Sequence record: PZ019084.1
Strand: one strand, 5' to 3'
DNA length: 64,000 bases
Origin: a phage
Below are positions 48,978 through 49,325 of this stretch, piece by piece. The notes under the pieces were generated by a model. The model did no database searches and had not been told where the DNA came from. It saw only the letters and a list, made by a program, of their open reading frames with translations. Position 1 is the stretch's first letter. Every line of letters begins with the position of its first letter. Position numbers and translations under genes: made by a program.

Positions 48978-49325
48978 TCAATACGGTTTAGCATCAAATT
49001 TTCTTTCGATTTCAGGAGTAAAATATAATTCTTTACCACGTTTGGAAAAACGACCAATAATATGATAATTATTCTCATCAAACGTGATATTGCCGATATC
49101 CATAGCTTTCAACCAAATATCGATATTTCTGTCAAGCTTTATATCAAAATTCCAATACGGAGAACTGTTACCAAAAATACTGCAAGCGGATTCAGTGAAA
49201 CAACTGCTATAAATTTTGTCTTTAGGAACTACTAATTGATAGACGCCTTTAATAAACTGAGGACCCTGCCATTTTGGTTGTTTTGCGTCTTTTTCTAATA
49301 GAATAGGATAATAATTAAAGTTCAT
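48978..49325 (-). CDS. hypothetical protein (115 aa) between frd and td
   Basis: ORF in track; I recall frd and td being directly adjacent in T4. Confidence 0.5.
   Translation of the reverse strand: MNFNYYPILLEKDAKQPKWQGPQFIKGVYQLVVPKDKIYSSCFTESACSIFGNSSPYWNFDIKLDRNIDIWLKAMDIGNITFDENNYHIIGRFSKRGKELYFTPEIERKFDAKPY

Follow-up and report, generated by a model that had tools for sequence, protein, structure and literature searches.

The closest described counterpart of the gene analysed here is td.1 of the phages T2 and T6, which is named in the GenBank records AY262132.2 (T2H) and AY262134.2 (T6), where its product (ABI48938.1) is listed as a “hypothetical protein”; in RB14 and RB51 the same gene is called RB32ORF229c. 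It is located between frd and td, the genes for dihydrofolate reductase (DHFR) and thymidylate synthase (TS). In T4, the start of td (1853) lies within the end of frd (L003 1275-1856), the two genes sharing ATGA, as the preliminary description of this DNA stated, and a search for the same ORF at the T4 frd–td junction found none. Among the other genes of this region, frd.1/DUF5417, frd.2/FRD2, frd.3, nrdA.1/DUF4326 and nrdA.2/DUF5496 are similar to td.1 in their cluster, strand, size class and AT-richness, and their function is likewise unknown, although their sequences are unrelated to it. The free-standing homing endonuclease genes mobE and segG, like td.1, are variable occupants of the gaps between conserved genes; Td.1 differs from their products in having no nuclease motif and in being too small, and its position is constant across genera.

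The window, i.e. the whole stretch of 64,000 nucleotides that was analysed (PZ019084.1), belongs to a Tequatrovirus genome, which over 10 kb shares about 96% identity with phage ECO07P2. The ORF of 115 aa placed between frd and td by the preliminary description is found there at the same coordinates and with the same translation as was quoted; it starts with ATG and ends with TGA, and the N-terminus of its product is MNFNYYPILLEKDAKQPKWQGPQFIKGVYQ. The distance between frd and td, given previously as about 400 bp, measures 411 bp (48934..49344). The ORF shares the minus strand with the whole cluster from gene 32 to nrdA, arranged as 32 - frd.3/2/1 - frd - td.1 - td and then nrdA.2, nrdA.1 and nrdA, in which td is represented by an uninterrupted, intronless ORF of 286 aa. 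The td.1 proteins of T2H and T6 are equal to the window protein in length, show 100% amino-acid identity to it and are encoded at the same frd–td position, while their DNA is 4-6% different, exclusively at synonymous sites. Judged by this identity and position, the ORF is td.1, an already catalogued, uncharacterised gene of T2 and T6. The features of the locus are collected in Table 1.

Table 1. Features of the frd–td locus in the window (ORF C is given for the records in which it was located)
Feature	Position	Strand	Remarks
td.1 coding sequence	48978..49325	minus	115 aa + TGA; PHROG 1928 member; predicted OB-like beta-barrel
frd (dihydrofolate reductase)	49345..49926	minus	upstream flank; Pfam DHFR_1, E 2e-19
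td (thymidylate synthase)	48073..48933	minus	downstream flank; Pfam Thymidylat_synt full length, E 3e-95
Direct repeat TAAATGAAA, 9 bp, upstream copy	49343..49351	minus	spans frd stop codon
Direct repeat TAAATGAAA, 9 bp, downstream copy	48928..48936	minus	spans td start codon
Shine-Dalgarno-like GGCGGA	49329..49334	minus	4 nt upstream of td.1 ATG; function putative, from sequence
td.1–td spacer	48934..48977	minus	44 nt
Sigma-70-like TTGATT-17-TATTAT	48981..48953	minus	consensus scan
MotA-box-like AGCTTCA, then after 12 nt TAATTT	48966-48972; 48948-48953	minus	read by eye
td ribosome-binding AAGG	48940-48943	minus	
ORF C	L004 1853-2059 (phage EC121); also L008 2648-2854, L010 4670-4879		

The gene is not a discovery, since it has a GenBank name and a PHROG family and occurs in hundreds of sequenced phages. 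Using hmmscan, the PHROG 1928 profile was matched to residues 4-111 of the protein (E 8.4e-36); paralogues of the B type (see below) and distant family members also match phrog_1928. When td.1 was compared by tblastn with 50,697 phage records, it was detected in 555, and identity of at least 99% was recorded in 266 (including T2, T6, RB14, RB27 and RB6); the exact sequence is present on 341 contigs of a large protein collection, being hypothetical every time. An exhaustive HMMER search among 1.84 billion representative proteins revealed only 49 clusters, nearly all of 95-148 aa, which means that the family is small. Phage-database searches placed it in T4-like phages only, and the single-protein scan of IMG/VR returned solely near-identical Jiaodavirus loci. 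The sole match in the scan of GTDB genomes, the apparent bacterial homologue L017, was rejected as spurious: it lies antisense within an ORF of 680 aa similar to methyl-accepting chemotaxis proteins. The repeat protein P0062 (579 aa) from the representative search was set aside because it matches via a low-complexity repeat alone.

No motif had been recognised in the protein before, and the profile searches agree with this. Td.1 has no Pfam match at E<=10, neither td.1 nor its paralogues nor the 53 family members gave a consistent match when scanned against Pfam, NCBIfam and PADLOC, and PHROG 1928 itself is labelled “unknown function”. The defence-component profiles of PADLOC-DB matched neither td.1 nor the B paralogue nor ORF C. 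Profile searches of the PDB by sequence returned nothing meaningful (top match at E 0.13), the Rfam scan of positions 47000-51500 gave a single sub-threshold chance match, and no paralogues of td.1 were found elsewhere in the window. The literature search on td.1, PHROG 1928 and screens for T-even accessory or anti-defence genes found no paper mentioning the gene in the library that was searched. The T4-encoded neighbours of td.1 all have Pfam families, and td.1 is probably left without one because T4 lacks this gene.

Comparison of the closely related genomes demonstrates that td.1 is a genuine protein-coding gene under strong purifying selection. The window sequence differs from that of T2 by 15 synonymous and no non-synonymous substitutions and from that of T6 by 20 and none, while the 12 differences from CrRp10 are all synonymous; these synonymous-only differences rule out a chance or non-coding ORF. 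Across seven sequences, dN/dS of td.1 is 0-0.17, with values of 0-0.03 at the low end, the pair of the window and T2 included. The more distant form of OLB35 (Mosigvirus) gave dS of about 1.1 and dN of 0.033, and with a homologue of 63% identity dN/dS is 0.15. For the same genome pairs, dN/dS is 0.09-0.30 in frd, 0.135 in td and 0.07-0.35 in frd.1 to frd.3. Within Tequatrovirus, td.1 is locally under stronger constraint than the flanking DHFR and TS genes. Its GC content (31.6%) and GC3 (25.9%) are inside the range of the neighbouring genes.

Homologues of td.1 with 30-47% identity occupy the frd–td slot in Klebsiella phage Mineola (Jiaodavirus), Enterobacter phage Q7622 (Kanagawavirus), Erwinia phage Cronus (Roskildevirus), Citrobacter phage CF1 (Moonvirus) and Klebsiella phage kv_tblp8, and closer ones are found there in the Logan contig L010 (63%) and in OLB35 (94%); many further T4-like phages of Enterobacterales carry a homologue in this slot as well. 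In most of these phages, the homologue overlaps frd, td or both at its start and stop codons. A further ORF (B; 113-144 aa) adjoins the first one (A) in several of them; according to blastp and hhalign (probability 99.7%, E 5.6e-27), it is a tandem paralogue, distinguished by about 20 additional residues that follow the conserved QxxW motif. Wider tblastn searches, in which two divergent family members and a B paralogue of the Kanagawavirus type were used as queries, located members of the family beside the DHFR gene or close to it in phages of Proteus, Morganella, Providencia, Serratia, Edwardsiella and Yersinia, and also in the Salmonella S16-type and Enterobacter CC31-type phages.

Between genera, td.1 retains 30-47% identity and Frd 44-51%. 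Since the divergence of td.1 is about as deep as that of Frd, the gene has apparently occupied this locus for roughly the whole time of divergence of the genera. From these comparisons, the frd–td slot appears to be the ancestral home of the td.1 family, which is confined to T4-like phages. The ORF was previously considered to be “inserted” and “lineage-specific”, which is at variance with its same-slot homologues in other genera, their Frd-like divergence and the native GC and GC3 of the gene. The correlation of td.1 divergence with Td and Frd divergence (rho 0.29-0.37) is no better than that of frd with td (0.39), and it does not discriminate descent from transfer because the whole region is mosaic.

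In the 90%-identity protein collection, the Mineola homologue (105 aa, L005 2501-2815) is clustered under a DHFR representative of 199 aa, which is probably why the search for homologous proteins missed the A-type homologues of other genera. In OLB35, td.1 (L014 701-1048) has 94% amino-acid identity to the Tequatrovirus form, and its dS of about 1.1 contrasts with about 0.39 in the adjoining frd, while in the sampled Mosigvirus-like records frd abuts td; taken together, these data point to cassette exchange between genera.

The content of the slot varies among the T4-like phages. The order frd-A-B-C-td is found in L010 and kv_tblp8, the T2-type phages possess A (td.1) alone, the EC121-type Tequatroviruses and JS98 possess C alone, and in T4 the slot is empty. 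Among the Tequatrovirus-like records, about 60% carry td.1, about one quarter carry C and the rest are T4-like, these proportions being rough (identity bands, spread sample). ORF C (68-69 aa) is unrelated to td.1 and belongs to PHROG 9550 (unknown function); it is present in 238 phage records and unannotated in JS98, and homologues of it with 43% identity are also carried by the Phapecoctavirus (phAPEC8-like) phages, a group outside the T4-like ones.

In an alignment of the three junctions (window, T4 and EC121), every base corresponds as far as frd TATAAATGA and again from td ATGAAACAATACC. Removing the 415 bp between the two copies of the direct repeat TAAATGAAA in the window yields exactly the frd/td junction of T4, TATAAATGAAACAATAC, and the repeat is present in T2, T6, CrRp10 and TadeuszReichstein as well. 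Since the T4 junction is the expected deletion product, T4 represents a derived, reduced state, and the insertion into a T4-like state that the preliminary description suggested is not supported. We suppose that td.1 was lost from T4 by a 415-bp deletion between the two 9-bp direct repeats; the repeats are observed, while the deletion mechanism is deduced from them. The loss in T4 indicates that phages can do without the gene on laboratory hosts. The targets of SegG in gene 32 and of I-TevI in td have been reported (PMC2988022); located between them, td.1 would be exposed to co-conversion in mixed infections with T4-type phages, which is a plausible route to its loss. A link of td.1 to the td intron was rejected: T6 has both, in T2 and the window td.1 occurs alone, and in T4 only the intron is present.

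Putative expression signals of td.1 and td can be traced around the gene. td.1 starts 19 nt past the frd stop codon (spacer 49326-49344), and the sequence TGGCGGAAA(A)T before its ATG is conserved in T2, T6, CrRp10, TadeuszReichstein and OLB35. The td.1–td spacer is identical, except for a 1-nt indel, in T2, T6, CrRp10 and TadeuszReichstein, despite dS of 0.2-0.4 in td.1. It harbours the promoter-like hexamers listed in Table 1, of which the MotA-like one is read against what we take to be the consensus of T4 middle promoters. Judging from these motifs, td of the T2-type phages may have its own promoter, which would be impossible in the overlapping arrangement of T4. The td.1–td spacer of OLB35 has 13 nt only and is without the promoter-like hexamers.

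The AlphaFold2 model of td.1, based on an alignment of 30 sequences, has a mean pLDDT of 77 and pTM of 0.74. It consists of several beta strands, a helix (residues 68-76) and a long beta hairpin (86-96 and 99-104); the model of the B paralogue (pLDDT 86) has the same order of elements. In the structure comparison, both models retrieve almost exclusively OB folds, with about 60-72 residues superposing at 2.3-3.8 A. The predicted topology (strands, helix, beta4-beta5 hairpin) is like that of Teb1 OB-A/B, RPA, bacterial SSB and PriB, and the same small-barrel topology is found in the MCM N-terminal OB, the OB of the ExoVII large subunit and YgiW/BOF. The search of BFVD returned uncharacterised proteins of T4-like phages only, including those of Aeromonas phages missed by the sequence search. 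On the basis of these models, the td.1 protein is probably a small single OB-fold beta-barrel.

The signature derived for the family, QxxW, (H/K)G(I/V)Y, GN, G(R)FxKxG and FxP, is fully present in td.1 (Q16, W19; K26-G27-V28-Y29; G78-N79; G91-R92-F93-S94-K95-R96-G97; F102-T103-P104). Q16 and W19 are located in the beta1-beta2 loop, (H/K)26-G27-(I/V)28-Y29 at the start of beta2, G78-N79 after the helix and G91-(R)92-F93-x-K95-x-G97 in beta4 and the turn; F102-x-P104 is conserved too. Part of this conservation probably reflects residues of the core or of turns. The classical OB fold is a five-stranded Greek-key beta-barrel with a helix between beta3 and beta4, and its oligonucleotide, oligosaccharide or protein ligands are bound on the beta2-beta3 / L12 / L45 face. 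The ligand face is formed by the beta1-beta2 loop, the start of beta2 and the part of beta4 that leads into the beta4-beta5 turn, and by their position along the sequence the polar and aromatic residues Q16, W19, H/K26, Y29, N79, R92 and K95 fall on these elements. Mildly basic pI values (about 8-9.3) prevail among the A-type proteins, and the B-types are often neutral or acidic.

To explain these data jointly, we suggest that td.1 is an old gene of T4-like phages, lost by T4 and dispensable, which encodes an early OB-fold ligand-binding protein; we give this explanation about even chances. In the T2/T6-type phages, td.1 is part of the early cluster for nucleotide metabolism and replication, and in other genera the DHFR–TS slot, the presumed ancestral one, houses one or two tandem paralogues. 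Td.1 would bind single-stranded nucleic acid or a nucleotide-like ligand and, in its presumed timing and role, would assist Frd and Td as an accessory factor expressed together with them. The ligand binding is a guess of modest confidence, made from the predicted fold. The family may also represent an unrecognised functional partner of the enzymes by which the phage makes thymidylate, serving them as an OB-fold adaptor or regulator and missed because T4 lost it; we consider this rather improbable. For example, such a partner could hold the dNTP-synthetase complex (Frd and Td) at the replication fork by attaching it to ssDNA or gp32, or it could bind the frd/td mRNA. This idea is based on the fixed position between frd and td in many T4-like genera, the start and stop codons often overlapping those of frd or td, and the constraint, which is tighter than in both enzymes. 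The constant place in the DHFR–TS interval, the tandem paralogues and the tight constraint within Tequatrovirus point to a conserved molecular partner.

The main rival to the ligand-binding reading supposes that Td.1 is a host-takeover or anti-defence protein, the OB-like barrel of which inhibits a host factor (an immune sensor or effector, or an enzyme of the nucleotide pool), and whether a phage retains the gene would depend on the hosts it meets. Such a role, which we regard as possible but doubtful, agrees with the dispensability of td.1, which T4 and many other phages lack, with its patchy occurrence within genera, where the slot may hold ORF C (68 aa) or tandem diversified paralogues, and with its place in the early gene cluster. 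The strong sequence divergence between genera infecting different hosts is also in its favour, and OB folds can bind proteins, as the matches to Ten1/Stn1 and OBody illustrate. However, td.1 has no similarity to any family catalogued in Pfam, NCBIfam or PADLOC, and its fixed place by frd/td across more than 10 phage groups suggests an operon link and not a free-floating cargo. The dN/dS, which in Tequatrovirus is below that of DHFR and TS, shows no arms-race signature, although it is compatible with such a role.

The other readings are much less probable. That td.1 entered a T4-like frd/td overlap recently, as a lineage-specific insertion, with T4 being ancestral, could be supposed from the abutment of frd and td in T4, in the Mosigvirus-type and in several other E. 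coli T4-like phages, and the 9-bp repeats might conceivably have arisen by target duplication. However, the repeat is the stop/start context AAATGAAA common to both gene boundaries, no integrase, nuclease or terminal inverted repeat is present, the composition is native, and the same-slot homologues with 30-47% identity in at least five other genera have Frd-like divergence; this positional conservation across genera already largely refutes the insertion, and we hold it to be very unlikely. Even smaller is the probability that Td.1 is a homing endonuclease or its remnant, despite the label “putative homing endonuclease” in the BASEL records MZ501052, MZ501046, MZ501113 and MZ501106 and the known occurrence of free-standing endonuclease genes between conserved T-even genes (mobE between nrdA and nrdB in T6). 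None of the 53 family members matches GIY-YIG, HNH or LAGLIDADG, BLASTP of Td.1 against I-TevI gives E 2.8, a protein of 115 aa is predicted to form a single beta-barrel, and its position and full length are kept across genera under purifying selection. The conserved, promoter-like td.1–td spacer could suggest that the ORF is non-coding and the whole 411 bp is a regulatory spacer carrying the td promoter, but this has a negligible probability given the zero non-synonymous changes among 15, 20 and 12 differences in the three genome pairs, the protein-level homologues at 30-66% identity and the confident structure predictions.

At the frd–td locus, T4 represents a reduced exception and not the norm; this reduction probably accounts for the absence of the family from Pfam and from the literature. 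Our analysis also presents the family as an old positional companion of frd and td, often with tandem paralogues, unusually constrained and probably possessing an OB fold. Work on td.1 could add a component to the nucleotide-metabolism and replication module of the T-even phages or reveal a factor of host interaction. These findings may be moderately useful to phage biologists and are easily tested, although they would not surprise a specialist.

Further observations concern the neighbourhood of td.1. An ORF of 81 aa (49926-50171, minus strand) is located between frd.1 and frd and abuts the frd start; it belongs to PHROG 3183, has no Pfam match and is also present in T2 and EC121. T4 has only a 72-nt gap at this site, so that a second ORF of the cluster is absent from T4. 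A D12-class N6-adenine DNA methyltransferase of 263 aa (44415-45206, minus strand; PF02086, E 8e-24) is encoded between nrdA and the ORF 43211-44380, which, by its place in the cluster, is taken as nrdB; the space between nrdA and nrdB is occupied in T6 by the homing endonuclease gene mobE. In the window region 48100-48800, the 3' two-thirds of the intronless td have only 50-87% nucleotide identity to T2, unlike td.1, frd and nrdA.1/2, where identity is 94-100%, and the Td proteins of the window and T2 are 81% identical. This mosaic block of td surrounds what we take to be the place of the T4 td intron and of the I-TevI target.
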